Source: Amphibalanus amphitrite
Lineage: Eukaryota
Assembly (NCBI RefSeq): GCF_019059575.1
Contig: NW_024881521.1
Coordinates: 601,297 to 665,296, forward strand
Direction of reading: 5' to 3'
Length of the DNA: 64,000 nucleotides
How positions within the stretch are numbered: the stretch's first letter is position 1; each line of letters begins with the position of its first letter. Positions 5,877-55,595 of this stretch are shown here, in pieces. Under the pieces are notes generated by a model. It was not told the origin of the DNA and made no database searches. It saw only the letters and a program-made list of their open reading frames with translations. A program made the translations under genes and the position numbers.

Positions 5877-6098
5877 TCGTCACCGGACGGCTGTCTGGCT
5901 CGGAATGTCCGTTCTGCTGATATCACACGGTCTGAAGACCCACTGGCGTAACTGGGACTGGAGGGACGAGTACTCCATCTTCACAGCCGGCCTGCGCGTC
6001 AACAGGAACAACGCCAAGCTGTATAACAACGTGGGCCACGCGCTGGAGGGCCGGCAGGAGTACGAGCGGGCGCTGGTCTTCTTCCAGCATGCCGTCAG
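5877..6098 (+). CDS. TMTC-family exon, first TPR region (..RHRTAVWLGMSVLLISHGLKTHWRNWDWRDEYSIFTAGLRVNRNNAKLYNNVGHALEGRQEYERALVFFQHAV)
   Basis: ctccag acceptor, cag|gtagga donor; ORF track 5800..6102; phase-consistent. Confidence 0.7.
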
Positions 6099-6963: not shown

Positions 6964-7057
6964 AGTGCAGGAGGACGATATCGGAGCGCATATTAACGTG
7001 GGCCGGACCTACACCAGTCTGCATATGTACGACAAGGCCGAACAGGCGTATCGCACG
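6964..7057 (+). CDS. TMTC-family exon (RVQEDDIGAHINVGRTYTSLHMYDKAEQAYRT), TPR
   Basis: gttacag acceptor, acg|gtaagt donor; phase-consistent. Confidence 0.65.
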
Positions 7058-8358
7058 GTAAGTTCGATCAACTAAGACCGACCGTGGAAGGAGGCGGTGG
7101 GCTGTTCATAGTTTGTCACCATGCTGATTGCTGGGTCTGGGCGGGGTGGACGTGGGGGGTGGGGTCACTCAACCCAGTACTCTTGGGCTCTGGGCGTTAA
7201 ACTCACAATGATGGGCTGTGAGCTAGATGTGGACAGAACGTTGGTGCGAGTCTAAAAGTGGCGCCGGCGTCCCAGATTTCCGAGCTCAGCCTGCGATCCG
7301 CGTTGAAACTTTGGGCGTATCTGAGACAGATCCCGGAGCCGATTAAAGCGACTGCGCCGGCTGCAGCGGCCCGGGTCCCGTATCTCGGCAGCTGGGTCTA
7401 GGAACTGAGCCTCCCCGCCTCTCACCCGGGGCAGACTCGTGGCCGGTCCAAAAGCAGTGGAGCGAATCTCTCCCCCCCCCCCCCCCCATTCCTGACTGAA
7501 GTTTGGTCCAACCGGCCATCCTCAGATGTCCACAGTACATTGACGCCCGCATTGAGATATCGTCAGAAAACTGCCTCGGGTGGCTGACTGCGCAGGGATT
7601 CCTGAGACTCGGACCCGCGAGTTGCCCCTTCCCCACGGCGGTACCCCCACCTCCCCTCCCGCCCCGTTCCTCGGGCGGTGGCCCTGGAGACAGACAGCCG
7701 CGGGTGGTGATTTCAAAGTTGAATGGACGACCACCGATGCCGAGTTTACAGTGTCTTGCTTGGCTGTATTTGCAATGTCAGCTGGGCTCATCACACTATA
7801 TTTGTAACTGGCGCTGGGCATTCATTGCCGGTGGAAGGCCCTACGTAGTTTGCTACAACGGGTCTCTAATAAACGGGTACTTTGCTCAATGACGGATACG
7901 GCGTTAGTGCTTTCCCACTTAAGTAAATCAAAATTAGATATATGTAGCAGCAAAATTATTTGTGGCGTTGATCAGGGTCGTATCGTTGACAATGTCCTCA
8001 TAGTTATATCATAGGTTATTCCGCCATCTCTCGTCCCGGGTAACGGTATAGTAGGCACGCCGAGCTACTCTTCGCCGCGGTTTGTGGTCGTACCGTGCTA
8101 ACTCTGAGCTACAACACGGACGTAAAGTTCTGTAGGTGATGGAACGGCAAGCCGGCGCGGCTGAGGGATGGCTCCAATTTGGTCCGGATTGGTGGCGCCG
8201 GACTGAAGGCTGATCCATCACTGGACGCGCGGCGGTCGGAGCGTGTGCTGCCAATGTGTGTTCAGTGACCGGAAGTTTGTTTTTAGTTTTAGTGTGATTA
8301 GTATTCCTATCTGGTGTTCCCTGCAACAGTGTGTGACTTGCCCCTCTCCTTTTCACAG

Positions 8359-8649: not shown

Positions 8650-9705
8650 GTGAGTCAACGGGTCTGTCGGTGATACATTGATCAATGGGTGTTGCTGATT
8701 TTCCCGGCCTCTTCTTTTTCATCAGTCATTTTCCGTGAGTCAGTCCGTTGTTCATTTAGTCGGGTAGTTATTTCAGCCAACCGGTGAGCTAGCCTGCCAG
8801 TCATTCACCGTGTCATTTACCTACCCATTCCCGGCGGCCCAACCCCACCCCTCCATATTCTGGCTGTTGGAGCCTGTTGTGGCTGGGGTTATGTAGACAG
8901 TATACACACTGTCGTTGCGGCGTTCGGTCAGTTGCCGGGCGGTGTCCGGTGGTAGTATTTCCTTTACCACCCTGTTGTGTGCAGTGTGGGCCGATGGCCT
9001 GTCGGCCCGCGATACGGCGTCGGGCGCCGTGTTACCATCCGGGCCGCCATGGCGACTGGGACGGGGTGTGGGGGCCGCCGACCATCCGATTCCCGAGACA
9101 AGGATGTGAGATGGGGTGGCCGCCTGGCGCACACGGCGTGGGCTTATCTTCACTGACGGGCTGTGTGCCAGACGCTATGTTGTGTAGCTCGCAACAGAAC
9201 AAAACGTGATTGATTAGTAAACGTAATGATAACATCCTCCTCTCCGTCTTCGCTTCTTCCTGGGCTCATTTCGCTGTGAAACTACCGCAGTATTTGGTTG
9301 TCTAACACACCATCTCCTCTCCCTTCCTCAGCTGGGCGTGGTGTGTCTGGAGCAGGGCCTCCAGGCCCAGGGACTGGAGTTGTATGCTCTAACACCCCTC
9401 CCTCCCCCTTCTCTCCTCTCTGTTACAGCTGGGCGTGGTGTGTCTGGAGCAGGGCCTCCAGGCCCAGGAACTGGAGTTGCGTACTCTAACACCCCTCCCC
9501 CTCTCTCCTCTGTTACAGCTGGGCGTGGTGTGTCTGGAGCAGGGCCTCCAGGCCGAGGAACTGGAGTTGTATGCTCTAACACCCCTCCCTCCCCCTTCTC
9601 TCCTCTCTGTTACAGCTGGGCGTGGTGTGTCTGGAGCAGGGCCTCCAGGCCCAGGAACTGGAGTTGCGTACTCTAACACCCCTCCCCCGCTCTCCTCTAT
9701 TGCAG

Positions 9706-9987
9706 CTGGGCGTGGTGTGTCTGGAGCAGGGCCTCCAGGCCGAGGCGCAGGCCTACCTGGACAGAGCGCTCGAGCACGACCCCGACCACCAGCAGGCGCT
9801 GCTCAACTCGGCGGTGATTATCCAGGAGGAGGGGCCCCCGGAGCGGCGGCCGCTCGCCTACCAGCGGCTCCACCGGCTCATCGCGCTCCGACCGTCGGCC
9901 GTCGGACTCGACAGGGTCTACTTCAACCTGGGCATGCTGGCCATGGACGACCACGACCTGGTGCCCGCCGAGGCCTGGCTCAAAAAG
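9706..9987 (+). CDS. TMTC-family exon, TPRs (LGVVCLEQGLQAEAQAYLDRALEHDPDHQQALLNSAVIIQEEGPPERRPLAYQRLHRLIALRPSAVGLDRVYFNLGMLAMDDHDLVPAEAWLKK)
   Basis: ttgcag acceptor at 9700-9705, aag|gtgagt donor; this is the last of five tandem acceptor+exon-start copies, and which copy is used in vivo cannot be told from sequence. Confidence 0.65.
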
Positions 9988-10217
9988 GTGAGTAATGCGA
10001 GCCAAGGACTAGAGTGACTGTTCAAACTGTGACTGAGCTCATTTCGGCACCCCGCGTCCATCGTGTAAGTGGTTTAGCGGCGCGGGCTGGTCGGCCAAGC
10101 GGGCAGTTCGAAGTTGAGGTAGCCTTAGTGTTGATGCGTGCCTAGTATGCTCAGTTTCCTCTGTAAAGCCGCGCTGTGTGTTCTCAGTAGGCTGATTCCC
10201 GCCGGTCCCCTCTCCAG

Positions 10218-10412
10218 GCGGTGGAGGTGCGTCCCGAGTTCCGTTCGGCGCTGTTTAACCTGGCGCTGCTGCTGAGTGACGCCGGCCGGCCGCTGGAGGC
10301 CGTGCCCTTCCTCACCCGGCTGGTACAACATCACCCGGACCACGTCAAGGCGCTCATCCTGCTCGGAGACATCTACATCAACAACATCGAGGACCTGGAC
10401 GAGGCGCAAAAG
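10218..10412 (+). CDS. TMTC-family exon (AVEVRPEFRSALFNLALLLSDAGRPLEAVPFLTRLVQHHPDHVKALILLGDIYINNIEDLDEAQK)
   Basis: ctccag acceptor, aag|gtgggc donor; 65 codons. Confidence 0.7.
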
Positions 10413-10917: not shown

Positions 10918-12159
10918 CAGCCGACCGTGGGTGTTGGCTGAACTCTTGGCGCTGTGATAACCCGCGACGCTCCCCGCCCGGGCCTGCGGTACTTTTCGCG
11001 TGTCTGAGACCGCGCGGGCCAGTGGTCGCCCCGCCGGCTCGGAGCGTCGTCCTGCTTTAATCTGTGTAAATCCGCCGGGCCCTGGGGGCATCGGCGGACG
11101 GTCATACGACATGGTATTGTCAGGAACTGTCCTCTGTGAACTCTGTGTCCTAATGACGAGCTGTAATGAGAGCGTTATCACCGGGCTATTTTGATGCTGT
11201 TGTGCTCAATATTTTATGTAAGCTTGCGAGATGATTGTTATTTCTGTGCGAACTGCGATACGTGTTGTGGTAGCACGGTTGACGTGTCGACTGCGGGTGC
11301 TTGTGACAACTGTTGTTCGGTATGGATTGGCACGGTGGTTTTTGTTGTGCACTGTAACAGGGTACATCAGATCAGGAGCTGGTCCCTGAGGGTGACTCCT
11401 CGGCTGGGCGCCGGACCCTGGAGGTCCCGCAGATCGGGCACCGAGGCGCGGCGGGCCCCGTCGGAGCCGATATTGACTGTGATAAAATACATACAGTATA
11501 CATTCCGCTTAATGTGTGGTTCGGGTGTGTGCCCCAGAAAATCCACGATTCTTCCAGTTCATCACATAAGATAAGGAACAACGTTGTATCTTCGCGAACA
11601 ATCAAAGCACAATCAACACACCGTGCACAGACACTCGATGCCGTGAAAGCTCAGGTACAAGCGAGGACGAAGCCGCTAGAGCGCCCGGACGAGCTATGGC
11701 TTTTCCGTCCGAAAGTCCGAATCGGGTGCGTTGATCACGGACGCAGCCGGGGCAACATGTGATGAGTGAGTGTGGTCCATATGGTGGACAAATCCAGGCA
11801 CAAGCGAAAACCCCGGGGATAGTCGGGTGGCAGTTATGAAAATGACATCGAATGCAACGTAATTGTTCAGTATGAGGCGCTACTTTGACAAGCCTGTCAT
11901 CGGTACATCAGAACCACCTCGGTATCAAATCTCACACAATAATCTCATGACGTTGGGCTTAGACAGAAGGTCTGAAGCACCTCTTCGCCAACTGATTCCG
12001 AACTTCAAGCACCGTCCGCGCTCCCAGCACAAAGTCCCGGGTCGAACACTCTCCACCTCGCGGCGCTACCCGCGTTACCTTCCACAGCTTACCAGTTTGT
12101 ACTGCAGGCTCCTCTCACACTCTGAGCCGCGGGGCGCCCGTGGCACGGACCGCGGGCCG

Positions 12160-12267
12160 TCACTGCTGCTGCCGAGCCTGTTCGCGCTGCTCGCGGGCCT
12201 CCTGCAGCTGCAGCGCGCGCTCATACTGCTCCTGCCACTGCTCTGGCTCCACCTCGTCACCCCAGAT
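12160..12267 (-). CDS. NSMCE3: NSMCE3 / MAGE-homology-domain protein, last coding exon (IWGDEVEPEQWQEQYERALQLQEAREQREQARQQQ*)
   Basis: rc translation; ccccacag acceptor; TGA stop at 12160-12162 (minus strand). Confidence 0.7.
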   Translation of the reverse strand: MWGDEVEPEQWQEQYERALQLQEAREQREQARQQQ

Positions 12268-12535
12268 CTGTGGGGAGGGGGGGGGGGAGACGGGACGATC
12301 AACGGCGCTCGCAGGGCAACTAGAATACATTTAGTGATATCGGTGATAATATACACACCCTCTTCGGGACTCTGGAGTTTCTCACTCAACTCCTCCCTCT
12401 AAGCGTCCCGCTTACGTAACTTCCCTTGTGTAGAGTTCCTAAATCAACCCACCACTCGTTAGCTTACCATTCATACTTCCATTACTTTCGAATGCTTCCC
12501 CAATTTCCGTTCACTCAGCTCGAAGAGTGTCTCAC

Positions 12536-14141: not shown

Positions 14142-14489
14142 GTCTCTCAGTTTGACGTCGGCCGCCTGCAGCACCTGGTTCACGTAGCCGCCGTGCTGCG
14201 GCTCCAGCGCCAGGCGGCGCACCTTCTCTCGGCGCAGCGGCTCGCCGCGGCCGTGCGCCGCCAGCACGTAGCGCACCACGCGGGCGGCCAGCCGCTCCTC
14301 CTCGACCGGAGACAGGCGCCGCTGAGAGCGCCGCTGGGTCTGCGACTGCGACTGCGAGAGTGACTGCGACAGCGGCCCGTCCTGGCGGCGGAGAGGGAGT
14401 CGCACAGACGGGTTACAGGCGGTGAACGGGTTATCAGGCGGGGAACGGGAGTGACACATAGGTGTTATATGTGGGGGAACGGAAATCAC
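14142..14489 (-). CDS. NSMCE3: NSMCE3/MAGE-like first coding exon (..RLSPVEEERLAARVVRYVLAAHGRGEPLRREKVRRLALEPQHGGYVNQVLQAADVKLRD); start codon uncertain (ATG at 14489 or downstream ATG)
   Basis: ORF 14100..14489 read to gac|gtgagtgg donor; low-complexity SQ-rich N-terminus followed by MAGE winged-helix start. Confidence 0.55.
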
Positions 14490-14683: not shown

Positions 14684-16040
14684 CAGGGTGTCCCATAAGT
14701 TCGTTCTCACATTATGTTTGCATGTGAAACAGAGTACATTGCGTTTTGGTATATTTATGACCCCTCAATGTGCTCCCCATTTAATAGGCAAACACATGAA
14801 TGCATGCTGCGGCATGCCAACCGGCATGTTTGGCTGCATAGCAGGCTTAAAGTTAACCCAGACTGACTTGACATGCGCCGTGAGCTCCTCGAGGCTGGAA
14901 CAGCGCTACGCTTCGACGAGCCTCAACTTGAGCATAACCAACAAATTTTTATGAAATTTTGATCCGATGAGGTGCCTGGCATGTGATCTTGCCACAAACG
15001 CCTGTCACAGTCTGCTTGCACCGCTTTTAAGCTTTGCTTGACCTGTGCACTGATGCACTGTCTTGCCTGAAGATGGGCCTACGACCTCCCGGATGCCATT
15101 TTCTCCTCTATAAATGTGTTCATACTCGCGGTTCGAGTTCAGCTTGAGGGCTGAAATTCCTCCTGGATGTTCTTGGAAAAGCACTCTGCTTCCCAAAACT
15201 GTTTCTGGGTTGCCACTTGTAACTTGATCAACTCCAGAACGCCTATAACCCCACAACACAGTGACCCTGGCCTCTTGCATAGGAACATAACGGGACGAAA
15301 TGAAGGCCTCCTCCTTCGCCCTTATGGGGTTGTTTTCGGGTTTGGACGGGTGTTTCATCTCGAACGTGGACTAGTTAGTCCAGATGACCTGGCTGATGTC
15401 ATCAGCCCCCTAGTTTTGTTTAGCCTCAGGCATAACGAAACTCATGTTTGGCCATTTTAAGACGTTTTTGACTGTTTTGTGCCCTCCGGTAAGCAAAGCT
15501 TAAGTCACCTTGAGTTATGTACCCCGAAAGAACACTCTTAGACAGCTGGTAATCCATCCTGAAAAGTATGTTTACCAACTTTCTAACCCTTTGACCTTTT
15601 TGATGGCCACTTTGGCGCCACACAGTTTTGGCCACTTGGCTCATTCCTGAGGGCTGGCTAGAAAGAGGATAAACTTGCAGTGATTGACTCCCAACAAATC
15701 ATCGGCGTCACTTGCTGACTGTGCGTCCAGTTAGCGATGGATATTGGCTACAGACTGGTAGGCCTCAATCACCCTCAATCGTCGCGAATGGTCACGTGCT
15801 GACTAAATACTGAGACGTACCCGTATCGGAGACCTCTATGTTGCGGCGTTAGCCGTGTCTGTAGGAAGCGGGCTCTCTAGCAAAAACTATTTTGTCTACA
15901 GAAATTAGCTACTGTGGAGCATATTTCTACCACCCATGGCAACCATGTAAGCTCAGTTACGAACCAATTTCAGCGTGCCTTTAAGCAAGAAAGCCTAAAA
16001 ACGTAAAATTTAGGTGAGAACGAACTTATGGGACACCCTG
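14684..16040. mobile_element. non-autonomous Tc1/mariner-like DNA transposon (~1.36 kb), 27-bp TIR CAGGGTGTCCCATAAGTTCGTTCTCAC, TA TSD
   Basis: perfect 27-bp inverted termini at 14684-14710 and 16014-16040, each abutted by TA (14682-83, 16041-42); no intact transposase ORF. Confidence 0.8.
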
Positions 16041-27791: not shown

Positions 27792-29299
27792 GCGCCGAGT
27801 GCGGTCATGGTTTCGAGTGCTCATCGGTGGCACGCGGCGCTAGCGCTGGGTGCCCGAGGCAGTGATGGGTATTACGGTCACCAGTTGGGACTCGGCCTGC
27901 CCTGCCGCCGTTGGGAGAGATGTGGTAGCGGCTGGGTCTACTGCTTTTAGTGATCGGTTGCTGATGAGTGCTCTGGTCGTCGCTGCTACTTTCAGACGAT
28001 CGGGATAGGTGTTGACTGTTGACCGATCCACAGAACGTGTTCTGAGGAAACGGAGTTTTCTCTCCCTCATGTATCTACCTGCCCGTTCTGCGCAGTGTTG
28101 AGGCTTGTATCGAGGCGGGCAACAGGCTCGCGCCTCCGTCCGTCCGTCCGTCCGTTTGTTGTCTCCAGCGCTGTGTAAATACGTCCGTCCATCGGCTTTC
28201 TGCCGAACATCCATTTTGTCTGAATCTCCCCGGCAGTCAGCGTTATCGAGACTGTTTGTAACATTCCAACTTGTCGGGTTGCTTCTGATAGCCGAGGTAT
28301 TACTGCTGGTATGTAATTGATGTCACCAAATGTGTCGACTCTGGAAGCGTGCTGGGACGTAGCTAGCTGTTTGTGTAATCCATTCGCAACTCGCATGCTT
28401 GCGAGTTCATCTGGAGTGCTGGTGGCTGCTGATTTAGTCCGTCCAATGCACCCGCAGTGAATCAATAATTGATGTGCGTTGTTTTTTAATTAAGCTCGTA
28501 CGTTGCACACCCCGTTCGTAGTTCTGTTTTAGATTTGCACGCTGAGCTTTTTGGCTAAATATCGCTTACCATTCCCCGTGAAATACGCTGGGATTGCTAG
28601 AGAATCTCATCGCTTATCATATTTCATCGTAGTTTTCTACGCAGTACGCGTATTTTTGGAATATACTGCCTATTATACAATCGGCGTTTGCGTCGGTCTA
28701 CAACTTTTGTGGAAGAATCCGAGTGGAGAACACACGCGGGATATATGATCGGTTGAGCTTTCACCGTTGTCCTAGCACTTCGACAAGCGTAATCTGAAGA
28801 GAATGAAACTAACCTCTGGTGATGAGAGCTTTCAAAAGCTGCGTGGCTTTTCCCTGGTTCTGGATTTTGTTGTGAAAATTCAAATAGGCAAAGCACGCAA
28901 TTTTATTCAACTGAGTAAATGCGGCGTTGTTGGTCCAAGGACAAAAGACAAGCAGACAAAACGACAATTGCTTGGCATGGAATACACGATTTTGCAGGAT
29001 ATCTATCAGCATGATATTTACTACACCAGCAGAGATGCCACAATACACCCCTCCAAAATAACGAGAGACCGCCAACGCAAGCGCCAAACCCGTGCATTAT
29101 ATCACCTGGCACAAACATGCAGCCACAGACACCGATTTACATGACTAGTCAGATCTCTCGACTACGTTCGCTTCGTTCGAGCCCGGCCTGACGTGGCGCT
29201 AATTTATCACAAGGCGCGTCGGAGCGGTGCGTTGTCCGTGCCGCCCGGTTTTCTCCGTCAGCTGGAGGTCCCGGGTGGCGGTGGTGGCCTCTCGGCAGG

Positions 29300-29470
29300 T
29301 CAGGCGGGCGCGGCGGCCGGCCGGCGGCAGGCGCCCGGTGACGGCGGCCCCGTCTCGCGCTCCGTGAGCCCGGCCTCCAGGCGGGCCACCATGGCCGGCA
29401 GGTGGCAGAAGTAGCGACTGGCGGCCACGTGCCGCAGACGCACCCGCTGACACAGCTCCGGCCCGTACCG
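29300..29470 (-). CDS. terminal coding exon of IQ-motif gene (RYGPELCQRVRLRHVAASRYFCHLPAMVARLEAGLTERETGPPSPGACRRPAAAPA*)
   Basis: ccccggcag acceptor; TGA at 29300-02 (minus strand); phase-consistent with upstream exon. Confidence 0.55.
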   Translation of the reverse strand, partial: RYGPELCQRVRLRHVAASRYFCHLPAMVARLEAGLTERETGPPSPGACRRPAAAPA

Positions 29471-29756
29471 CTGCCGGGGAAGAGGAGTACAGCCACAAAA
29501 CGGTCAGTACCGCTGTGAGGGAGATGAGGTACGGTCACACTCGTCAGTACCGCTACTGGGAAGAAAGGAGAGGAGCACACCGGTACCTGATACATATATT
29601 ACAGGCCGTACTGCTAGCTGGAGGTGGGAGAGTTTGGACAAAGCACACACTGGTCACGCGAGAAGTATAACGAGACACTGAAATCATGATTGGTATAGCC
29701 GTCTCGTTCCTGGATCGTCATCCACTTTAAGAACGCACGCGCACCTCCAGGTGTGT

Positions 29757-29942
29757 CATCACTGACCTGCTGCGGCTTTCCGAGCTTGTAGTGCGCCTCG
29801 GTCTCGTCTCTGGTGAGCAGGACGCAGTTCCAAGGCGTCCAGGGCTGTTCCACGTCCCAGCGGCAGAGCAGCAGCTCATAGAGGTCCGGATCGGCGCTCA
29901 GGCAGGACTGGCCGCCCCACAGCGACAGCACCAGGTGACGGA
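29757..29942 (-). CDS. IQ-motif gene exon (ESDFRHLVLSLWGGQSCLSADPDLYELLLCRWDVEQPWTPWNCVLLTRDETEAHYKLGKPQQ)
   Basis: tgttacag acceptor, cag|gtcagt donor; ORF 29614..29961. Confidence 0.65.
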
Positions 29943-30361
29943 AATCAGACTCCTGTAACACATGAAAGACAGAGGTGGTATGTCAGACAGGACTGACCGC
30001 CCCACAGCGACAGCACCAGGTGACGGAAGTCAGACTCCTGTAACACACAGACAGAGGTGGTATGTCAGACAGGACTGGCCGCCCCACAGCGACAGCACCA
30101 GGTGGCGGAAGTCAGACTCCTGTCACAGAAACAAATACATGTGTCAGACTCATTAACCTGTCCCATACCCAGATCATAAGTCACACGTAGGCCTCGCACA
30201 CACATGGGTAGCGAAAGTCGTACACCTTTCTCACACCGTATGTAGCGAGGAAAGACTTGCCAGTGACCAAACCCCACGCACGCTCCCCGTACTTCGACTG
30301 CAGGCTGTCCTCTCTCACATATACTAGAGTACCACTGACCCGTCAGTAATCCTCCGCTGAC

Positions 30362-30497
30362 CTGTATGAGGCAGACGGCTGCCGAGCCCGGTGACCGGTT
30401 CTGTTCGTCACGGCGCAGCTCTTCCAGCATCTTCCCGAGCACGTTGTTGTCGTGACGCCGCAGCGCCCAGTTCTGCAGCTGTTCACACATACGGCAC
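30362..30497 (-). CDS. IQ-motif gene exon (R-CRMCEQLQNWALRRHDNNVLGKMLEELRRDEQNRSPGSAAVCLIQ)
   Basis: ccctcag acceptor, cag|gtcagc donor. Confidence 0.6.
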
Positions 30498-30777
30498 CTG
30501 AGGGAAAGTAGCGGGACGGAGCGGTAAGGATGGTTGGTGGTTAGTGGTTACACATCTAACTAGAGTTGAAGCCAACGACAGAGGCACTCTGTACTGCGCA
30601 CAAGTCACCACTAGGCTGTAAAAAATAAGACAATAATGGCATTCGCTAGCTGCATTATTTATGACGGCATAAGTCCTTAAGTCTGATATGGGACATCAGT
30701 TCATTCACGACCCCTAAATCAATATCCATCCCACTGCACTTTCCCACACCCACCAATTCCCCGCCGCTCTGACGTAC

Positions 30778-30890
30778 CTCCTCAGGGTAACGTCGCTGGC
30801 GTCCACCTGGAACTGGTGTCTCGGCAGACAGCGGTGGCACGAGGTGCACGTGTTGACGTCACCGCGGATCGACTCTGGGTCCAGCGGTAC
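30778..30890 (-). CDS. IQ-motif gene exon, Cys-rich (VPLDPESIRGDVNTCTSCHRCLPRHQFQVDASDVTLR)
   Basis: gtgcgtcag acceptor, ag|gtacgt donor. Confidence 0.6.
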
Positions 30891-31155
30891 CTGACGCACG
30901 TCAAAACAAGGCACACGTCAGTCGGGGACAGTGATGGTGACGGCAGACATCATCCAAAAGCAATAAGGCGAGATGAGGAAAATTTACAGGCAGTGAAGCA
31001 ACATGTGTAAGCATCATAGAGTATTAGCAAACATCATGAAAAAACGCGGTAAATTATGTACATTTTTATCAGCCAGGATAGTATCAAAAGTGGACCCTGT
31101 TAGCTAGCCATGCCAGACCCAGCAGAACTCCTAGCCACTGTGGCCTAGGACGCAC

Positions 31156-32669: not shown

Positions 32670-32789
32670 CTGTTTGCGCCGTTCTGCGTCGTCCACAATC
32701 CACTGGAGCACGACATCCCGCTCCCTGGCCATCCGCTGTACCCGGCGACGGGCCAGCCAGCGGCGCCAGTACTTCTGTAGAAGAATCGC
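32670..32789 (-). CDS. IQ-motif exon (AILLQKYWRRWLARRRVQRMARERDVVLQWIVDDAERRKQ)
   Basis: IQxxxRGxxxR-like calmodulin-binding motif (LQKYWRRWLARRR); ccaccacag acceptor, cag|gtcaga donor. Confidence 0.65.
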
Positions 32790-32904
32790 CTGTGGTGGAG
32801 AGCGTGAATATCGTCAGACAGGGGAGTAACACGGGCCAACCAGCGGCGCCAGTATTTTTGTAGAACGATCGCCTGTGGTGGAGAGGGAACATCGTCAGAC
32901 AATT

Positions 32905-35450
32905 GGGGCCTATTGTTGTTGTTGTTGTTGTTCCCCCTGGGACCTCCTTACGGAGGACCATAGCCGAGAGGCTCCCTATGGCGAAGGTAGCCGGCCTCCA
33001 AGGCAGCCACCAGGTCGGCGTCCCGCAGCCGCGACGGGTCGACGTGAATGCTGCCAGTTAGCCGCAGGCGGGCGCCAGCGAGGGCCGGGCAGCGGAGCAA
33101 CACGTGCTCCGGCACGTCCGCCTCTTCCCGGCACACGGCGCAGAGCGCCGTGGGGCACCGCTTATCGGGGCACTGCAGGCATGCCACGGAGGGGTGGCGG
33201 CCGATCCGGTGCAGGTATTGGAGCGAGCGGCCCCAGTGGCCCACCCTCCACTGGTGCACCGAGATGGCGGCCTCTCGGTCCTCTCCGGGGATGGGGAGCG
33301 GCAGGGTGCTCCCGAAGATAGCCTTGAAAAAGGAGTCGGGCCAGTTTTCGCGCCACTGACGTGTGGTCGTCCGATGAACTGCCCGTGTCAGGGGCCGAGC
33401 GTCCGAGGGCACGGCGCCCTGGGGCAGGGTGGCCGCTTGCTTGGCCAGGGCGTCAGCGCGCTCGTTCTCCGCCAGCCCGCAGTGAGCAGGGACCCACTGC
33501 AGGGTCACCTGCCGGCGCTCGGCAATGTCCAGCAGCGTCCTCCAGATCGCCGCGCCGAAAGTGGAGGTCTGGGCGGCCGCTCCCGCGCTGAGGAGGCTCA
33601 GGGCGGCTCGTGAGTCAGAGCACGCCACCAGCGGGGCGGGGGACGGCTCATCCCGGACCCGCTCCAGCGCCGCCCTCAGGGCGAACAGCTCCGCACGGGT
33701 GCTGGAGCAGAGGTCTCCCGCCACCACCTCAACCTCGAGAGTCTCCCCCGACGCGGTAAAGATGATGGCGCCGCCCCCTCGCCTCGCCTGACCCCAGCGT
33801 CCGCAGAGCCGTCGGACCAAATCCACGTGGCCTGGGCTGGGAGCGCCGCCAGGTGCTGCCGCGCGGCCTCTCGTCGCGTCTCGTTGGAGGAGGCTCGACG
33901 ACCGCCGGGTCCCACGTCCAGATTGAAGGCGATCGGGCGGCAGGTTGTCCACGGGAGGAGGGGAACCTCGAGGCGCGGCTCCACCGTCACTCCCTCGGCG
34001 CCCGCCTCGATCAGCGCCGATCGCCCCAGTTGTCGCCAGCCGGTGGTAGACCGCAGTCGAGTGGGTGGGTCGGCCTCCGCGACGCGGCGAAGAGGGTCGT
34101 CCTCCGGCAGGGCGAGCGCTCGGCAGAGCGTTCGCGCGGCCAGCGTCTTCCTGGTGGACCATGCTGAAGGGATGCCAGCCTCGGCCAGCAGGGGATCCCT
34201 GGGGGTGGACCTTGGGCATCCGGTCACCACCCGGGCTGCCGCCAGCAGCTCGCGCTCCACCAGCTGAACGTGTGACGGGGACGCGGCCGGGAGCCAGGCA
34301 CCCGCTGCGTATTCAAGGGCTCCCCGGACATACCCGTTCGCGACTGTCCTGAGCTGCGCCTCGCGGAGACCCCAGGCCCGGCCGGTCATCCTCCGCAGCT
34401 GTGCCGTCCGCGGCCGGACCTTCCGCCGCAGCAGAGAGTCGCAGTGGTCTTTAAAGTGTAGAAGTCTGTCGAAGGTCACCCCCAGAAGATGTAGGCTGGT
34501 GCCACCGGTGACCTGCGTGCCGTTCGCCAGGAGTTGCACGCCGCGCTCGTCCCTGCTCCGCTGAGTCAGCAGCAGCGCCTGGGTCTTCTGTCCGGCGATG
34601 GACATCTTCCAGTGCCTTGCCCATCGGGCCAGGGCGTCGGCCGACTTCTGGGCGCGAGCCACCGCAAGCTCTACGGTGGCTCCAGCGCTCAGTGTGGCCC
34701 TGTCGTCCGCATACATCAGGACGTCCGTGCGGTCCGAGGCGTTCCGCAGGGTCTCGATAAGGTCCGCCGCCCAGAGCGTGTAGATGGTCGGTGCCAGGAC
34801 CGAGCCCTGCGGCAGGCCCGCGCGGAACACGCGCTCGCTGCTGTGCGCGCCGTTGACCTCTACGCGGGCCCGCCTGCCGCGAAGGAACCGGAATTTCCAG
34901 GTCGCGAGACATCTGGGGAGGAGCTTGAGGAGCTTCAGGTGCAACATCCGGTGATCGATCGTGTCATAGGCACGGGAGAAGTCGAACGCCAGGAGGACAA
35001 AGCGGTCCGCCGTCACGCCATCCTCCGGGCCTCGTCTCGGCTTGGGGCGATTCCAGCCATCTTGAACCGTTTGGACCAAGCGGGCCAGACTGTCCTCCGC
35101 CGACCTCCCGCGGCGGAACCCGACCTGTTCGGGGGGCACCAGTCGGTCTCGCTCGATGAGGTAGGTCGTCCGGGCCGCGATCATCCGCTCCGCTAGCTTG
35201 GCGATGTGACTCGTGAGCGCGATCGGGCGGTAGCTGCCCACTTGTTTGGGGTCTTTGCCGGCCTTAAAGATAGGGATGATGGTCGCCCGTCGCCATGAGG
35301 CGGGCGTCTCGAGGTTGGACCACGATCTGTTGATGAGTGCCAGAAGGGTCCGGTAGGCCGTCGGTCCGAAGTGCCGCAGGTGTTCGGTGCATACCCGGTC
35401 CGGTCCTGGCGCCTTCTTCGTCCCGAGGTGTCGGATTTGGTCGTCGGATT
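32905..35450 (-). mobile_element. 5'-truncated, frameshifted RNase-H-containing non-LTR retrotransposon (I/R1/LOA-type): RT, RNase H, C-terminal CCHC finger
   Basis: rc ORF 33676..35676: RT motifs (GPD.., FADD-equivalent YADDRA..); rc ORF 32948..34219: RNase H (..WVPAHCGLAENERADALAK) and C..C..H..C finger; (CAA)n 3' tail at 32918-32936; ~70% GC, unlike the host introns. Confidence 0.85.
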
Positions 35451-35883
35451 GGGGCCTGTCTGTGGGAGAGACACACAGCCCAACAAACGACGCCAGTACT
35501 TCTGCAGAACGATCGCCTGCAGAGACAGCGGGAGCATAGTCAGACGCGGGGAGACAGTCACACGGGCCAGCCAGCGACGCCAGTGCTTGTGAGGAACGAC
35601 TACCTGTGAGGGCGAGGGGAAGACTGTTGGTGCGTGTGGGGGGGGGGGGGGGGCACGGCATATCAGCGAGAGGCACAGATTGTCGCTGATATGGACCAGA
35701 CCACTGTCAAGTGTCAAAATAAATTATTTTTACAAGCTAAGCGAAATATGTGAGGGTACTTGATTGTTTATGAATGGTTAAACATAGCGAAGCTAGTTAT
35801 AATTTCCAAAATCCCACACCATGGCTGTAATACTGTTTGTGAGCATGCCGCCAGTGCAAGACCCAGCGCGGCGCCGCTCTCAC

Positions 35884-41243: not shown

Positions 41244-44200
41244 CAGTAGGCGGAACTATGGTCAAGCGTACCCATTTTCGGGAACGCATTTTCGTTCCCA
41301 TGTTTGGGAACGATAAACCCAAATATGGGAACGCCATGTAGGCATTATTTAAAACAAGAAAAAGAACCGTTAAATGACGTCCAAAAAAAAAAAAAAACGA
41401 TCGTGAACCGCCTGATATTTGTCCCAATATTGTTGGGAAAGAGTTTGATATTGTAAGGCCCATCGTAGTTTCAAATCGTTCCCCTATTTCTAAAGCAGTC
41501 CATCATCCGGGCCGCGAGCCCAAATTTGGGAACGCTCTCGTACACTGGCGCTGCAAGCGTTCCTTATTATGGGAACGGCGTACCCAAAATTGGGAACGAT
41601 TTCACCGACGCCTTTCAGGGGCTCTTTTCATTAACAAGCATCACGTCCAACGCCGCAAATTATTGTTAACGCAACAATCATCAGATGACCTTTCCGGCAA
41701 GACCGTCGCATGTTACGCCCGGTCTTCTGCGCTTTTATTCCCGTCGATCTCGCAGCGGGCACGCCCCCCTCTGCAGGATTACGTAGTTCACAACGCTCAG
41801 CGATGTTCAACAAGGTCTTCCATACCTATATCCACCGTCCGCGCCGAGGGTGGAGACATGTCAAGCACCTGTCTGTTTATCACCGATAGTTGACGAGCAC
41901 AAGGAAGTATCCAAAAATGGGAACGCTGAATATGTTACACCCTCAAAACACCTAGTCCCAATGAAAATCTAGTTTTTTCCTTTCTTGATGGGTGTAAGTG
42001 GCAAAAGGCCTGGTAGGATGGGCACGAGGAATGATCGAGATCAGCATAAAAATTATAAATAAGCCACACAAAGCGACCTATATAAGAGAAATTCCCCCAA
42101 AACGATCGTGCTTAGAAACACGGAAGACAAAAATCACGCTCATGACGCTCCTTATAAAACAACGCTTAAAGGGACTGTCCCACCTTAACATTAGATTTGA
42201 GTTGAGATAGCCATCTTGATGGACGTTCTTTGAAAATCAGTGCCGTGAAAACCGTTTCTCCAGCAATTACTTCATCGCAAAGAAATTTGAGTTTGATTTT
42301 GACATCTGTGCAAATAAGTGCCACAATGTATTGGTATAGGCACTTAAATCTGATGACGTCATCAGGCTTTCGAACGTCCGTTAAATGTTTGACTAAAACG
42401 TTTTGTAGCACGCGGTGGTATATGCTGCGTTGCGCGCAACAAATGCCGCACTTTTAAATAAAGTCGCTAGGAACAGCGGAGATCCCAAAAAGTAAACAAA
42501 AGTAAAAGTCTAATATCTTCAAAACCGGTGAATATTTTTCGGTGAAATTTGGTAGATATTCGTTTTCGCTCTTTCTGAACCGAGCGACATCACTTTCATG
42601 CCAATTCATAAACTTTTTTAAAGGTGGGAGGGTCCCTTTAACAGCTAGCATCCAAATAAAATATGTCTTTCCGGGATGATAAAATACAGCTGAATAATTT
42701 TAAACCACTGAAACCGAGTTTACAACAGTAGTTCGGTAAAATCACTGACGTTCCACGCGGTCGTGCGCCCCGACACCAAAAGTCAACAATATTACCTCGG
42801 GACTGTCCGCGTGTTCGCTTGCATATGTCAGCATCTGGTGTCGCTAGTATGAAACTTCATAACCAGGCGAAAATTATTGTACTTGACCTCAAAATGTAAA
42901 AAACGCTTCATTTTCCTTAAAATTGCAAGTTAAATGTAGTATAACCCATGTTTTCACCATTCCGTCATTTCAAAAAATCATTAAAAATATCATTCGACGG
43001 TCAATTTCCTTGTGCAACGGTCAGATTAAAGATAATTTTATAGAGACTTAGTACGTAACCGGACAAATCTTCGTATGGCAATTCTTCGTCGCGCAATTCC
43101 TCGTCCGCATTTCTTCGTCCGCAAATCTTCGTCGGCGCATTTATTCGTGTCGCATAACTTCGTCTCGCATTTCTTCGTAAGCGCAAATATTCGTAGCGCA
43201 TTTTTTCGTATCCGCATTTCTTCGTACGCGCATTTCTTCGTCAAGCATTTTTTCGTCCACGCATTTCTTCGTCTACGCAAATCTTCGTCCGCATTTCTTC
43301 GTCCACGCAAATCTTCGTCTGCGCATATCTTCGTCCGCAAATCTTCGTCCCCGCAAATCTTCGTCCGCAAATCTTCGTCCGCATTTTTTCGTCCACGCAT
43401 TTCTTCGTCTACGCAAATCTTCGTCCGCATTTCTTCGTCCAGCAAATCTTCGTCCCGGCAAATCTTCGTCCGCAAATCTTCGTCCGCCAAACTTCGTCCG
43501 CAAATCTTCGTCCGCAAATCTTCGTCCGCATTTTTCGTCCACGCATTTCTTCGTCCACGCAAATCTTCGTCCGCAAATCTTTGTCTGCGCATATTTTCGT
43601 CCGCAAACCTTTGTCTCCGCTATCTTCGTCTCCGCAAACATTCGTCCACAAATGTGGTTCAATAAAACCATGAAGAAATATCAGACCATCAAGTGATTGA
43701 CGAATTTAATGCATGGAATGGATGATCGAAACTTTTGAAGTCAGGTAGATGGGGTCTGTCCGGTGAAGCTATTGTATTTGGGAGCCGAGAATTGAAACAT
43801 TCCATATCATGTGTCCCGGACATTCTTTTTTCGCGGTCGATGAATGACAATACAATCTCTTGTACCCTCGCCGGCATAGGCGGCGGAACGGGGAGGGCAC
43901 CGGGGCACCGTTCCCCTCTTTAATTTTGGCCTTTTAACAGTAGCCCTATGGGCGTTGCATGGAAAGAATGGGACTAAAAGTCGGCAGTGCCGTGCCCCCC
44001 CCCCCCCCCTAATTGAATGTGTTCCGCCGCTACTGCTCGCCGGACCTATTTGTTTTCTACATATACGCCGGCCGAGGGGGGCGGGTACGACCCCCCCCCC
44101 CCCCCATCGCCGTTTCGCCACTGGTGGAGCTAGCGCGTCGCGGAAAAAACGAGCGTGTGCGCCGTTACGAGACGCAGAGGTTAATACCCGATTTTAAGGC

Positions 44201-45925
44201 CTTCTAGGTCAGGGGTCGGCTTACAGCCCGCGGGCCGGATCCGGCCAGGAGGGTGACGGTTGGATCCGGCCCGCGACCATCTGACGTCCGGCCCGCGCAA
44301 GTTTTGTCTAGAAGTAGAATTAGACAAAAACACCCGCAAATGGTGTTTATAAACTCATGAAGTGTGCGAAGGAAGAACTATTGTGCCAAAGCACATTTAA
44401 GTCACTTTTATATCGGAGTCGATTTCTGAAGGAACCGCGGGCCGGAACACGATGTAAGTCGATGATACCAGCCGCGGGCCGGACGTCAGATGGTCGCGGG
44501 CCGGATCGAACCGTCACCCTCCTGGCCGGATCCGGCCCGCGGGCCGTAAGCCGACCCCTGACCTAGAAGGCCTTAAAATCGGGTATTAATCTCTGCGTCT
44601 CGTAACGGCGCACACGCTCGTTTTTTTCCGCGACGCGCTAGCTCCACCAGTGGCGAAACGGCGATGGGGGGAAGGGGGGGGGGGTCGTGCCCGCCCCCCC
44701 CCCTCGGCCGGCGTATATGTAGAAAACAAATAGGTCCGGCGACGGCGAGCAGTAGCGGCGGAACACATTCAATTAGGGGGGGGGGGGGCTTGGCACTGCC
44801 GACTTTTAGTCCCATTCTTTCCATGCAACGCCCATAGGGCTACTGTTAAAAGGCCAAATTAAAGAGGGGAACGGTGCCCCGGTGCCCTCCCCGTTCCGCC
44901 GCCTATGCCGGCGAGGGTACAAGAGATTGTATTGTCATTCATCGACCGCGAAAAAAGAATGTCCGGGACACAAATGATATGGAATGTTTCAATTCTCGGC
45001 TCCCAAATACAATAGCTTCACCTGACAGACCTCATCTACCTGACTTCAAAAGTTTCGATCATCCATTCCATGCATTAAATTCGTCAATCACTTGATGGTC
45101 TGATATTTCTTCATGGTTTTATTGAACCACATTTGTGGACGAATGTTTGCGGAGACGAAGATAGCGGAGACAAAGGTTTGCGGACGAAAATATGCGCAGA
45201 CAAAGATTTGCGGACGAAGATTTGCGTGGACGAAGAAATGCGTGGACGAAAAATGCGGACGAAGATTTGCAGACGAAGATTTGCGGACGAAGTTTTGCGG
45301 ACGAAGATTTGCGGACGAAGATTTGCCGGGACGAAGATTTGCGTGGACGAAGAAATGCGGACGAAGATTTGCGTAGACGAAGAAATGCGTGGACGAAAAA
45401 ATGTGGACGAAGATTTGCGGACGAAGATTTGCGGGGACGAAGATTTGCGGACGAAGATATGCGCAGACGAAGATTTGCGTGGACGAAGAAATGCGGACGA
45501 AGATTTGCGTAGACGAAGAAATGCGTGGACGAAAAAATGCTTGACGAAGAAATGCGCGTACGAAGAAATGCGGATACGAAAAAATGCGCTACGAATATTT
45601 GCGCTTACTAAGAAATGCGAGACGAAGTTATGCGACACGAATAAATGCGCCGACGAAGATTTGCGGACGAAGAAATGCGGACGAAGAATTGCGCGACGAA
45701 GAAATGCCATACGAAGATTTGTCCTGGAATCGACTTAGTAGATACTTAAATTAGCGTGCACTTTTTTGAGACGTGATGCACTAATGAGTTTTAGTGGGCG
45801 AACGGCCGAAAAATTAACTTCCGTTCTCATAAATGGGAACGCCCGTTCCCATATTTGGGAACTCCGTTCCCAAAAATGGGAACGTTCCTATATTTGGGTA
45901 CTCATGACCATAGTTCCACCTACTG
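41244..45925. mobile_element. ~4.7 kb non-autonomous TIR DNA transposon; ~30-bp TIR CAGTAGG(C/T)GGAACTATGGTCA(A/T)G(C/A)GTACC and GGGAACG subterminal direct/inverted repeats
   Basis: left terminus 41244-41273 is the reverse complement of right terminus 45897-45925; multiple T(T/A)GGGAACG motifs at 41285-41620 and 45815-45890; no transposase ORF. Confidence 0.7.
43061..45735. repeat. Foldback-like long palindrome (~2.7 kb, arms ~1.3 kb, centre ~44390); arms consist of a minisatellite of ~12-13 bp units (cgcaaatcttcgtc / cgcatttcttcgtc); centre is itself a GC-rich hairpin
   Basis: 43061-44200 is the reverse complement of 44570-45735; the RKSSSA/ADEDLRTKICG 'ORFs' on both strands are translation artefacts of the tandem array. 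Confidence 0.85.
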
Positions 45926-48900
45926 AACCCACAACATAACCTACCTACCTACCGCCGACGGTGACGCCAGCTTTACCGATAGGTACCGAAAATGCTAGGA
46001 TACGTCAGCACCTCTGACCAGTCGTTAGATTTTTATCTACTTGGACTTCATCTTCACATTTAATAGTGTGTGCCCACAATTATCAATTCACACTTAACAC
46101 TGAAAATGTCATTGGTTAAAATCAAAATTGAAATAGACGCCAATCGCCATATCTACTCACCAGCCGCAGAGCGAGTGTAGGACGCCTCAGCAGTCAGCCT
46201 CCGTCGTCATCGTTATTTCGTCGAAGAAAACAAAGACGAAATGAGGGAAAACACCATTAATGCATTATGCATATTTAATGGAAAATATAAATATCCGGCA
46301 GTGTCTAGTACGTCCCCTCCCACTCTTTTTTCTCTCTTTGAAAAGACCAAGGCCCTATATGAAAAGACAAAAAATGTGTGAGCGCTCAGGGCCGAATACA
46401 ATGCAGTGTTCCAAATAAACTACAGAATAAATATGACGTCATAGGCTCGATCTTGTTTTGATCTGATATGACGTCACATAGAGTTTGGTACAAGACTGTG
46501 TAAACAGCATCGAGGCTATATAAACGATAAAGTTGATTTAAAGCTGACTAAAATATTTGACTTCTTAAGAAAAATTTAAAACTGTAGGCAGGCTTAAATT
46601 GATAACAGTTTTAAAAAAATGCATGCTGATCCTTAAACATCTCATTTGCCTTGCTACCTTTGCCATTTCAACGTTTTTTAAACAATTAAGCATAAGATAT
46701 CATAAACCAAGCTCTTTTTGGCAAAATAAGCAAAGCAAAGCATATCTATTCCATGATTTTTAACTTTCCAAAGAAATAACTTTTAAGTAATACGTCATTT
46801 ACAAAGGCTTATATTATCGTGATTGGCGCGATTTCTAAACTAATGCGCCATGGTCGTATAAATTTTCCCGCTGAGGATGCGCACACAACACACACATTTT
46901 GATATTTGCAATTGTGTAATTTGTTGATAATAAATGCACTATATTGATATAGTTATTGATCTGTATCCTTTCTTATATTATTGTTATTGTGCTATGTTAT
47001 TTATGTGCCTAGTACCTTCAGCAAAGGCTTTAAGCTGTTTCTGTGATGACATATGATCAGGGCCAGTGTTGGAAAAGTTGCCGTTTTCTGGTATCAGATG
47101 CGCCAGGAATTTTGTACTCCACTGGAAAATGACAATTTTTGTACTCCAATGACTACGCGTCCCACACAAATAAAAGGGTGTGAAATTTGACAATGAACTG
47201 CCCATACTCCCTTGTGTTACAGGTACCCAGTGGAAACACAGCTTCTGCAATAACTGCATCCCAGCCCGGGGGCCCAACCCAAGTCAGGGCAAAAACTACA
47301 AGTACAATGCACAGCATAATGAAGATCGAAGAGCCAAATATCCTGCATAACATCCACCAGCCGTGATGAACAACTACCAGAACTGATACTTGTACTGGTA
47401 CATTGCTGTGTTATGCTTAACAAATTTGAATTATGTGCTTACGTGGTCCTGTAGACAATGTACCTACATGAAATAAACATACATGCAAAGTGTTGTATTT
47501 TGTGAGCTTAATAACTAAGAATGACTTGCATTTGTGCCAAGTCCAAATCCAGGATGATGATGAGGTACAAAGTTATCAAAAACGCCATGGAGTACCTATT
47601 GGTCTGGACCAGGGTCTGGACTAAACGCTGCATGTGTACCTATCGTAATAGGGATCATAGGGATATCCGGATATCAACTCACAGGCCCGACCACAAAATG
47701 AATGAATATACGTCGCAAGGTATATAAAAACACTTTACTAATTACTATACAATAATACACTATACATCTCATTATGATGCGTCGTATATATTCCTATCTC
47801 CATGCCGCTACCTACCACAGCAAAAATAAGTGCGCAATGATTGTCTTTTTGTTAGAGATGATCAAGTCAGCACAGCTTCTGTGGAGTCGCTGATTCAGTT
47901 CTCCTAAGGATGGAATTTTAAATGGTTTATGATCGGGAGACGACTTGGAATCTTTCGACATTTGCATCGTAACTGTTGCTCAAATAATGATTGTTTGTGG
48001 TTTAAAAAAAGGAGAAAAATACAACCTTTCAAAATATGACCAATTTTTTCCAAATGAAATGCCGTAACTGTTAATATTGAAGATTTTCTGAACTGGAAAC
48101 TCGATGATAAAACTTAAAGTGCAGATCCAGTACTCCTTTGCCAATTGTATGCTCCACACAGCTCCGTTTCTCATGGCCCGGCTATGACAGATACAAAATT
48201 GAGCCTGCTTTCTGATGGTAGGCAGTTTTTGGCCAGAGGACCTATGGTTATTGTGAAATTGGTGTTCAAAGGCTGTACTCCGACCTCTGTCTCCGGGTCC
48301 TGTTGCCGTAGCGTAATCGCGATTCCGTGGTATGTGCTGTGCCAACTCTATCGGGCCGCTTATTTCGCCGCGCCGATATTTGTGCCGCTGGTGCCGCCGG
48401 CGGCGTTTTCCACATTTTCGAAGCTGGCTGAAGTAATTATATTTTCGTTTGTTTTCCATTGTTGCCTGTTTTCCATGCTATGAGTATAGTTGTAAGAACA
48501 ACCTAACAGGTTTTGTCTTTTGTAATTGTAATCAAGCGTGGGCCGTGGCCGTGGGCATTGGCATTAGCGGTGGGGTAAGTGAACGTTCCACTTTGATTTT
48601 GGTCTGGTTCCTTTCATGATAGTAAATAATAAATATGTACTATGATGACTATGATGATTGATTGATAATTTGACTGTTACCTGGAGTGGAGTTAATATCA
48701 CTATCATTAACCTCCCAATTGTCTTTGCTGATCTAGGTACTATCATTTCTCTGACCCTGAATCAGAATATTCATTCTTATTTTAAGTCATAAGCATGATT
48801 CAACAAAGTGAAGTCCTATACATAAGTTGTCTAACAAATTCAGATAATCTTGCTTTCAGTTATAGCTTGCATTTCATTATATTGCATGACTAAGTAGTGC

Positions 48901-49257
48901 TTCCTGGTGCATACGAGAGCACCAATTTTTGGTTCCAGACTCTCGTCCCTACTTCTAGCTGCTAACCTAATCCTTACTATGACCACTAACCACTCAGTTA
49001 TGATCACATGATACTTGCCACTCTCAACAAAAAAGTTCTAGTTGATCGTCTTGCTGCGTCACTCGATAAACATTGTTTTCCACACTGTATTGTTTATTCA
49101 CATGCTTACAATTCTACATACATAGGTACAAAGAAAAACACTGCACAAAAAAATACACTATGCAGACGCAATTGACCACCCCAACGCTGTACAGTTGTAC
49201 TCCACTGGCCCAAAAATTTTGTACTCCACTACCAGAACAAAAAAGTGAAATTCCAAC

Positions 49258-49560
49258 CCTGATCAGGGCTGCGGAGTCGATGGATTTTCGGCGACTCCGA
49301 CTCCGACTCCGGCTTTCAAAAACCAGCTCCGACTCCGACTCCGACTCCGGGCAGAATTGTCAACTCCGACCGACTCCAACTCCCAACTCCGACTCTGCAG
49401 ACCTAGCAGGGCTGCGGAGTCGACAGATTTTCGGTGACTCCGACTCCGGCTCGGGTTTCTAAAATCGACTCCGACTCCGACTCCGACTCTGGTCACAACT
49501 GTCGACTCCGACCGACTCCGACTCCGACTCCGACTCCGCAGCCCTGCATATGATCATGAC
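49258..49560. repeat. two tandem ~150-bp units, each bounded by inverted CAGGGCTGCGGAGTCG / CGACTCCGCAGCCCTG termini and filled with (GACTCC)n hexamer repeats
   Basis: direct reading; hairpin-forming minisatellite or MITE pair. Confidence 0.8.
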
Positions 49561-55396: not shown

Positions 55397-55595
55397 ACGC
55401 GTCCGTCCGGAGCTCTCCGGCAAGGTGTCGGTGCTGGACTACCTGCTGGCCCTGGTGAAGACGCAGACCAGCGACAAGGTGGTGCTCGTCTCCAACTACA
55501 CGCAGACACTCGACCTGTTCGAGACCCTCTGCCAGATGCGCAGCTACTGCTTCGTCCGGCTCGACGGCAGCATGACCATCAAAAAACGCGCCAAG
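55397..55595 (+). CDS. RAD54L: RAD54L exon ([67 protein letters not shown])
   Basis: matches [65 protein letters not shown]; acceptor (cactag) is the last of four tandem copies. Confidence 0.85.

Follow-up and report, generated by a model that had tools for sequence, protein, structure and literature searches.

A probable mirage-type minisatellite at an intron-exon boundary of the IQUB gene in the barnacle Amphibalanus amphitrite

An intron-exon boundary of the gene IQUB is tandemly repeated in the barnacle Amphibalanus amphitrite. In the window (the whole 64-kb stretch of DNA that was analysed, 64,000 nt), the array consists of three head-to-tail units of 82-85 nt on the minus strand, and every unit comprises an intron tail of 27-30 nt, ending in AG, and an exon start of 55 nt. 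With a probability of about 0.8, we regard this array as a mirage-type minisatellite, a tolerated by-product of tandem duplication that is spliced at the last acceptor and is neutral or slightly deleterious. Mirage-type arrays appear to be common in barnacles and to be tolerated by splicing.

Gene identity and product

The assignment of the host gene to an IQ-motif gene, which an earlier note had made from the letters of the window, is borne out by profile and protein searches. Pfam recognises the neighbouring minus-strand exons as IQUB-like (PF25805, 56-58 bits, cut-off 27.8) and as containing an IQ motif (PF00612, 20.4 bits). A HMMER protein search returned a 601-aa protein that is 98% identical to the IQUB exons of the window, namely RefSeq XP_043230429.1 (IQ and ubiquitin-like domain-containing protein isoform X2, Amphibalanus amphitrite). 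The Rfam scan of the window gave no matches.

The protein product carries the repeated segment once. In XP_043230429.1 it occurs as a single ...AAVCLIQESDFRHLVLSLWGG..., with the junction ...AAVCLIQ/ESDFRHLV... (slashes mark junctions or breakpoints here and below), and the protein reads ...SPGSAAVCLIQ/ESDFRHLVLSLWGG...KPQQ/RYGPEL... across the exon. Isoform X1 likewise has a single copy, as do homologues at 35-50% identity, including full-length mRNA-like contigs, and the mRNA-like contigs at 51% identity found in a JGI metagenome scan. Because the RefSeq protein has one copy, the upstream exon at 30362-30497 must be joined to the last acceptor (AG 29954-29953). The RefSeq model is itself a prediction, and the use of decoy acceptors could be substantial.

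Anatomy of the array

A threefold tandem repeat of acceptor plus exon start, as first noticed in the letters, was recovered by three approaches. Tandem Repeats Finder (TRF) reports a single array at 29898-30131 with a period of 82, 2.8 copies, 91% matches, and a score of 394. A repeat search places three 79-nt copies in register (29882-29960, 29967-30045, and 30049-30127), which are spaced by 85 and 82 nt and are 82-96% identical. A 32-nt core, TTCCGTCACCTGGTGCTGTCGCTGTGGGGCGG, occurs three times in the 64-kb window with at most one mismatch, against an expectation of 0.00 from 100 dinucleotide shuffles. The true period is thus 82-85 nt; the earlier estimate of about 70 bp was too short, since the 71-nt string on which it relied is the conserved core and omits a variable 11-14 nt. 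The exon, formerly placed at 29757-29942, also has to be shifted by 10 nt. The features of the region are as follows.

30362-30497, minus strand: IQUB upstream coding exon (...CRMCEQLQNWALRRHDNNVLGKMLEELRRDEQNRSPGSAAVCLIQ), located from the sequence and by tblastn of the RefSeq isoform; ends in phase 0, with a GT donor at 30361-30360
30147-30065, minus strand: unit c1, the most upstream copy
30120-30147, minus strand: c1 intron tail, with a CTGAC branch-site motif (30147-30143), a T-rich tract, and AG 30121-30120; probably the original intron end
30065-30119, minus strand: c1 decoy exon start, 55 nt, with 3 differences from the authentic exon start
30064-29983, minus strand: unit c2, the middle copy
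30038-30064, minus strand: c2 intron-type spacer, with a pyrimidine tract and AG 30039-30038
29983-30037, minus strand: c2 decoy exon start, 55 nt, with 3 differences from the authentic copy
29982-29898, minus strand: unit c3, which runs on into the authentic exon
29953-29982, minus strand: authentic 3' splice-site region (c3), with CTGAC 29986-29982, the tract ...ctctgtctttcatgtgtt, and AG 29954-29953
29767-29952, minus strand: authentic IQUB exon, 186 nt and 62 codons, encoding ESDFRHLVLSLWGGQSCLSADPDLYELLLCRWDVEQPWTPWNCVLLTRDETEAHYKLGKPQQ; GT donor at 29766-29765

Units c1 and c2 lie inside the 409-nt intron (29953-30361), and the first 55 nt of the authentic exon (29898-29952) form the third copy. 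The repeated unit spans the intron-exon boundary, with an intron end, a splice signal, and an exon fragment joined head to tail, and the terminal unit c3 is continuous with the exon at 29767-29952 whereas c1 and c2 are intronic. The intron tails end in ...tgtg(a/tt)acag. The composition proposed earlier for the unit (a pyrimidine tract, a (t/g)(t/a)acag acceptor, and an exon start) stands except for the length of the exon part, which is 55 nt and not about 50 nt. The consensus of this part, GAGTCTGAyTTCCGyCACCTGGTGCTGTCGCTGTGGGGCGGyCAGTCCTGyCTGA, is identical or nearly identical to the true exon start.

The branch-site motif found in each unit, the mirage class, and the recurrence of such arrays in related species and at other junctions of the window go beyond the earlier description. 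The metazoan branch-site consensus is yUnAy. In each of the three copies, a CTGAC motif lies 28-34 nt upstream of the exon start; in c2 and c3 it arises at the unit junction, where an exon part ending in ...CTGA meets the C of the spacer, and in c1 the original intron flank reads ...gagtCTGACacatg.

The copies differ from each other at 2-3 positions per 55 nt, compared with 6 per 55 nt between the window and the related contig L003. At two synonymous sites c1 and c2 keep GAC and TGT, which the true exon has replaced by GAT and TGC; as other species too have GAC and TGT at these sites, the copies are not of very recent date. The edge copy of the window, c1, has the most divergent intron part.

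Predicted consequences for splicing

The single-copy RefSeq protein and homologues, together with the predicted reading frames, suggest that productive splicing uses the exon-proximal (last) acceptor and that the decoys are silent. Joining the upstream exon to c1 or c2 gives ESDFRHLVLSLWGGQSCLTYHLCL(C/S)... and leads to a premature TGA. From the c1 acceptor, 29 codons are followed by TGA at 30032-30030, and from the c2 acceptor, 30 codons are followed by TGA at 29947-29945, so that, as the first reading of the sequence had it, the open reading frame continues only from the copy nearest to the exon. Decoy-spliced RNA is presumably lost to nonsense-mediated decay.

The possibility that the units represent in-frame coding repeats or mutually exclusive exons was considered and rejected. 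The periods of 82, 85, and 79 nt are out of frame and result in stops, and only the related contig L001, with a period of 90 nt, stays in frame.

The same junction in related barnacles

Three relatives of the window (L001, L002, and L003) are contigs from ENA metagenome assemblies that were found by short-query protein searches. Their orthologous exons show about 88% nucleotide identity and 2-5 amino-acid differences in 62 residues, and are mutually equidistant. The junction is tandemly repeated in all three of them.

L001: 2 copies, period 90 nt, in frame
L002: at least 2 copies, period 83 nt; the contig starts inside a copy
L003 (long-read contig): 12 copies and a degenerate 13th, period 79 nt, 97% inter-copy identity

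The exon-side breakpoint, ...GTCTG/, ...GTCTGA/, or ...GTCTGAGCGCCG/, falls within 9 nt across the four lineages. Spacers are unrelated between lineages, except for those of the window and L002. Within a lineage, the copies share its own substitutions; at exon position 6, for instance, the base is T in the window and G, C, and A in L001, L002, and L003, respectively. This is the pattern of concerted evolution, and a recent independent origin in each lineage would give the same pattern. Strict yTnAy branch motifs were not found in the units of L001, L002, or Pollicipes, so a branch site in every unit is not universal.

The intron of Pollicipes lies at the same codon boundary and has one acceptor and no array; its IQUB gene is arranged head to head with RAD54, as in the window. 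The copy number of the junction therefore ranges between species from 1 (Pollicipes) through 2, at least 2, and 3 to 12-13. Either the array arose once after the Pollicipes split and was then homogenised, or it arose repeatedly at the same microhomology. Only one of the five IQUB junction arrays, that at 29898-30131, is common to the window and L003. Together with the shared breakpoint, this favours a single old origin, or a strong local propensity, over coincidence.

Other junction arrays in the window and in relatives

The array at 29898-30131 is one of five acceptor-type arrays in the 64-kb window. The four further ones are as follows.

1898-2007, plus strand: 2 copies, period 66; precedes a TMTC-like exon
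9307-9745, plus strand: 5 copies, period alternating between 90 and 97 (also a 187-nt period); TPR exon
32748-32901 and 35475-35616, minus strand: 2 good and 2 older copies; IQUB IQ-motif exon
55094-55440, plus strand: 4-5 copies, period 68-77; RAD54 exon 10

The two copies at 1898-2007 read tctctcag/ACTGGCGGTGAC... and ttcctcag/ACTGGCGCTGGC..., and the exon that follows them encodes ...AMLCKEQGITVVGVCGVYEVFVVRK, which we take to be TMTC-like. The unit at 9307-9745 consists of CTAAC, a pyrimidine tract, cag, and 43 nt of exon start, and its last copy runs into a TPR-repeat exon (LGVVCLEQGLQAEAQAYLDRALEHDPDH...). Both of these exons presumably belong to a TMTC gene.

In the IQ-motif exon array, the older copies are 69-76% identical. 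This array is split by a fragment of a non-LTR retrotransposon of about 2.5 kb (about 32913-35447), with an ORF at 32948-34219 and an (AAC)n tail. The occurrence of AGGCCCCAAT on both sides indicates that the element was inserted into the array. In the GenBank model of GCA_009805615.1, RVT_1 and IQUB are fused in a 1361-aa product, which is probably an annotation artefact.

The RAD54 gene occupies 50.9-57.2 kb, and the 591-aa reconstruction from its exons is 99% identical to the RAD54-like protein of Amphibalanus amphitrite, 92% to that of Pollicipes pollicipes, and 72% to that of Branchiostoma floridae. Dinoflagellates (with their introners), lamprey, and amphioxus, which GC3-rich coding sequence and a Tara metagenome match had brought into consideration as sources of the DNA, were rejected on these identities. 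The annotated RAD54 of Amphibalanus and Pollicipes (...HSTK/RVRPELSGK...) requires the last acceptor of the array, and this authentic site (ctag/A) looks weaker than the decoys (ccag/G). The independent A. amphitrite assembly GCA_009805615.1 (L006) matches the window at 99.2-99.9% over 38165-64000, the part to which the comparison applies, and there the RAD54 array is identical base for base.

Arrays of both kinds differ among relatives. L003 has two more acceptor arrays in IQUB, at 7045-7639 (74 nt x7) and 12159-12305 (53 nt x3), which are missing from the window, and thus this 17-kb orthologous contig has three acceptor arrays. The RAD54 exon of L004 is 99% identical in amino acids, yet it has no acceptor array; instead, L004 has a donor-side array at 593-1520 (75 nt x12.4) on the preceding RAD54 exon 9. 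Neither the RAD54 acceptor array nor the exon 9 donor-side array was found in L005. Pollicipes (L010) has donor-side arrays in IQUB and RAD54 at 5602-6090, 14265-14393, and 14769-15166, with 53 nt x9 in IQUB, and 41 nt x3 and 44 nt x9 in RAD54. The donor-side arrays of L004 and Pollicipes are not common to the window. These differences point to a quick turnover that affects both junction kinds.

Acceptors hold about 5 of the 8 arrays in the window with a period of at least 40 nt. Acceptor-spanning arrays look enriched beyond random placement in this sample, which is too small for a firm test, and the excess hints at a junction-directed mutational bias or at a function. In the RAD54 locus of Branchiostoma, which served as a positive control, the tandem arrays look like hairpin or MITE repeats, and none was found at a junction.

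Other repeats were also observed. Two inverted blocks at 43064-43653 and 45131-45721, about 1.5 kb apart, consist of 14-16/30-nt subrepeats (CAAATCTTCGTCCG...) and resemble the arrays of subterminal repeats in a TIR DNA transposon. L006, of the same species, lacks about 2.2 kb of the window (47063-49260), so that the two assemblies or haplotypes differ here by an insertion/deletion polymorphism; next to it, at 49264-49545, lies a GACTCC-rich repeat (142 nt x2). The IQUB introns of L003 contain long (GTCA)n/(TCAG)n microsatellites at 9595-9793 and 10157-10288, one of which starts about 25 nt past the donor CAG/GTCGGT and reiterates the donor-like GTCAGT.

Comparison with known systems

Mirages of amphioxus are tandem repeats of intron-exon boundaries that reportedly leave splicing undisturbed. 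Haplotypes differ in copy number, the units show concerted evolution with edge units less homogenised, and the arrays have been proposed as a route to new introns (PMC3087553, PMC3902484). Examples are the globins BflGb6/9 (PMC3087553), PGBD5 (PMC3902484), and troponin C; the work of Cañestro et al. 2002 (NAR 30:2871) is taken here as it is related in PMC3087553 and PMC3902484. Somatic instability has been reported for the amphioxus Adh3 mirage.

The barnacle arrays resemble these mirages in many respects. In both, the intron end, the splice signal, and an exon fragment are joined head to tail, and the terminal unit joins the real exon. Units range from tens to about 160 nt, copy number varies, units within an array evolve in concert, and acceptor-side and donor-side versions both exist. 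For amphioxus the mRNA has been reported to be normal, whereas the single-copy product of the barnacle gene is known from the predicted protein and from homologues. The hosts also differ, a cephalochordate in one case and a thoracican barnacle (Arthropoda) in the other. Compared with amphioxus, the barnacle arrays are dense, with five of the acceptor type in 64 kb and two in one gene, and the expansion of one junction extends over four lineages and reaches 12-13 near-identical acceptors.

The 37-bp VNTR in intron 7 of human F7 is another minisatellite that multiplies a functional splice site. The first unit of the VNTR covers the donor of exon 7; the pseudo-sites, although competent, stay silent, and scanning selects the first site (PMC1557585). 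The exon-proximal site is taken in F7 and presumably also in the barnacle. In F7, however, the array is on the donor side and the first, most upstream site is taken by 5'-to-3' scanning, whereas the barnacle array is on the acceptor side and the last site is needed, for which first-come scanning offers no obvious explanation.

Intron gain by tandem genomic duplication is well documented (Hellsten et al. 2011, PMC3265369; potato RdRp, PMC4974935). Gain according to the Rogers model is similar in that an intragenic tandem duplication copies splice signals, the extra copy is spliced out, and the mRNA is unchanged. It differs in that an exonic AGGT is duplicated and a new intron is formed, whereas the barnacle intron already existed and was merely lengthened. 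Internal gene duplications were reportedly treated by Gao and Lynch in 2009. Literature searches on barnacle minisatellites, tandem repeats, and introns returned nothing relevant, and within the literature searched mirage arrays of barnacles appear to have gone unreported.

Proposed origin and maintenance

A high local rate of tandem duplication would be the source of the array, which would not be an adaptive device. The duplicated segment would have started at the branch site of the IQUB intron and reached 55 nt into the following exon, and its head-to-tail copying may be due to replication slippage or to unequal exchange at a short homology, CTGA. This tetranucleotide is shared by the branch site CTGAC and the exon codons CTG-AGC. 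It is regenerated at the unit junctions, so the breakpoints lie in the 4-nt homology, and they are compatible with slippage or with microhomology-mediated duplication. After the first duplication, the copy number would have been altered further.

Each extra copy brings a full 3' splice-site module (CTGAC, pyrimidine tract, and AG) together with a truncated exon start. The last acceptor would be used because only there do the rest of the exon and a donor follow (exon definition). Selection may also act as a filter that sets the lower limit of the intron part at about 21-50 nt: if a duplication deprived the last acceptor of a branch site, splicing would have to fall back on the first acceptor and the frame would be lost.

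As part of an exon under selection, the terminal unit could not decay, and unequal exchange or gene conversion may hold the other units similar to it. Such homogenisation would result in copies that share lineage-specific substitutions. Anchoring and homogenisation together would keep the junction expanded, with differing copy numbers, in several barnacles.

The CTGA/C junction of the window and L003 also suggested another source, in which units bounded by the branch point are derived from the reverse transcription of lariat intermediates. A lariat origin does not hold generally: the intron part of the IQ-motif, TPR, and RAD54 arrays reaches 8-17 nt beyond the branch motif on its upstream side.

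Alternative explanations

The alternative that survives best is that the tandem acceptors are functional, either in regulated unproductive splicing or as kinetic decoys, and are maintained by selection across species. The decoys keep the AG and the pyrimidine tract, in the window and L003 also CTGAC 28-34 nt upstream, and in the sibling arrays the AG persists even in the older, diverged copies. The junction is expanded in four lineages, and use of a decoy predicts a premature termination codon (PTC), the usual design of AS-NMD. However, retention of the AG has no statistical weight, because the copies are 91-100% identical, and the 90-nt period of L001 is in frame and gives no PTC there. The copy number varies from 1, 2, and 3 to 12-13 with unrelated spacers, a pattern that shows neither a conserved dosage nor a conserved element. 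Unrelated genes (RAD54 and the TPR gene) also carry this design, and the presence of the RAD54 array in the window and its absence in L004 and L005 fit mutational turnover better. For these reasons we consider a selected function unlikely.

An assembly artefact, in which the assembler expanded a heterozygous or error-prone region with one real copy, is very improbable. Barnacle genomes are highly heterozygous, and the match to the second assembly covers 38165-64000, outside the array. Against this, the differences between the copies, at specific positions and in a 3-nt indel, are unlike stutter, and the repeat of the junction recurs in three independent assemblies from related species, among them a long-read contig with 12 copies. 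The sibling RAD54 array, moreover, is identical in two independent A. amphitrite assemblies.

The birth of an intron or exon deserves equally little credence. This would be a gain of the Rogers type or intron sliding, with a decoy recruited as a mini-exon or a splice site on the move. One change in c2 makes GGTCAGT, a donor-like sequence with GT at 29997-29996 that resembles the real donors of the gene (CAG/GTCAGT and CAG/GTCAGC), and mirages have been suggested as a starting point for new introns in the globins of amphioxus (PMC3087553). The resulting c2 mini-exon (AG 30038 to GT 29997-29996), however, would be 40 nt long, out of frame, and a duplicate of coding sequence, and the ancestral junction is the one seen in the RefSeq protein and in all homologues. 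No intron was gained here, because Pollicipes has its intron at the same codon boundary with a single copy and a single acceptor.

Repeated insertion of a mobile element with a splice acceptor, such as an introner or MITE, can practically be dismissed: other mobile DNA is present in the window (the retrotransposon at about 32.9-35.4 kb and the TIR arrays at 43-45.7 kb), but the unit combines the tail of the local intron with the start of the local exon, its core occurs at this one locus and nowhere else in the 64-kb window, and neither inverted repeats (29000-31000) nor target-site duplications were found.

Significance

A single array of this kind is a harmless-looking intronic repeat, and its value is that of an example of an apparently frequent barnacle feature. 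The arrays are natural competition experiments in splice-site choice, in which the last of 3-13 near-identical acceptors would be picked. They are also a trap for gene prediction, as tblastn aligns the decoys and ORF calls in metagenomes read through them.

A wider and more tentative proposition, which we hold to be possible rather than likely, is that thoracican barnacles have junction-anchored minisatellites throughout the genome. These would be over-represented at acceptors and donors, would persist through speciation by reseeding from the terminal unit, and would present up to a dozen identical competing 3' splice sites. If this is true, barnacles and amphioxus, both very heterozygous marine lineages, would have converged on one genomic syndrome, and the arrays could reflect a junction-directed mutational process. 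They could also be a standing source of intron sliding, intron gain, and unproductive isoforms. If enrichment and long persistence are confirmed, the parallel with amphioxus would suggest that both groups share a population-genetic or mutational cause.
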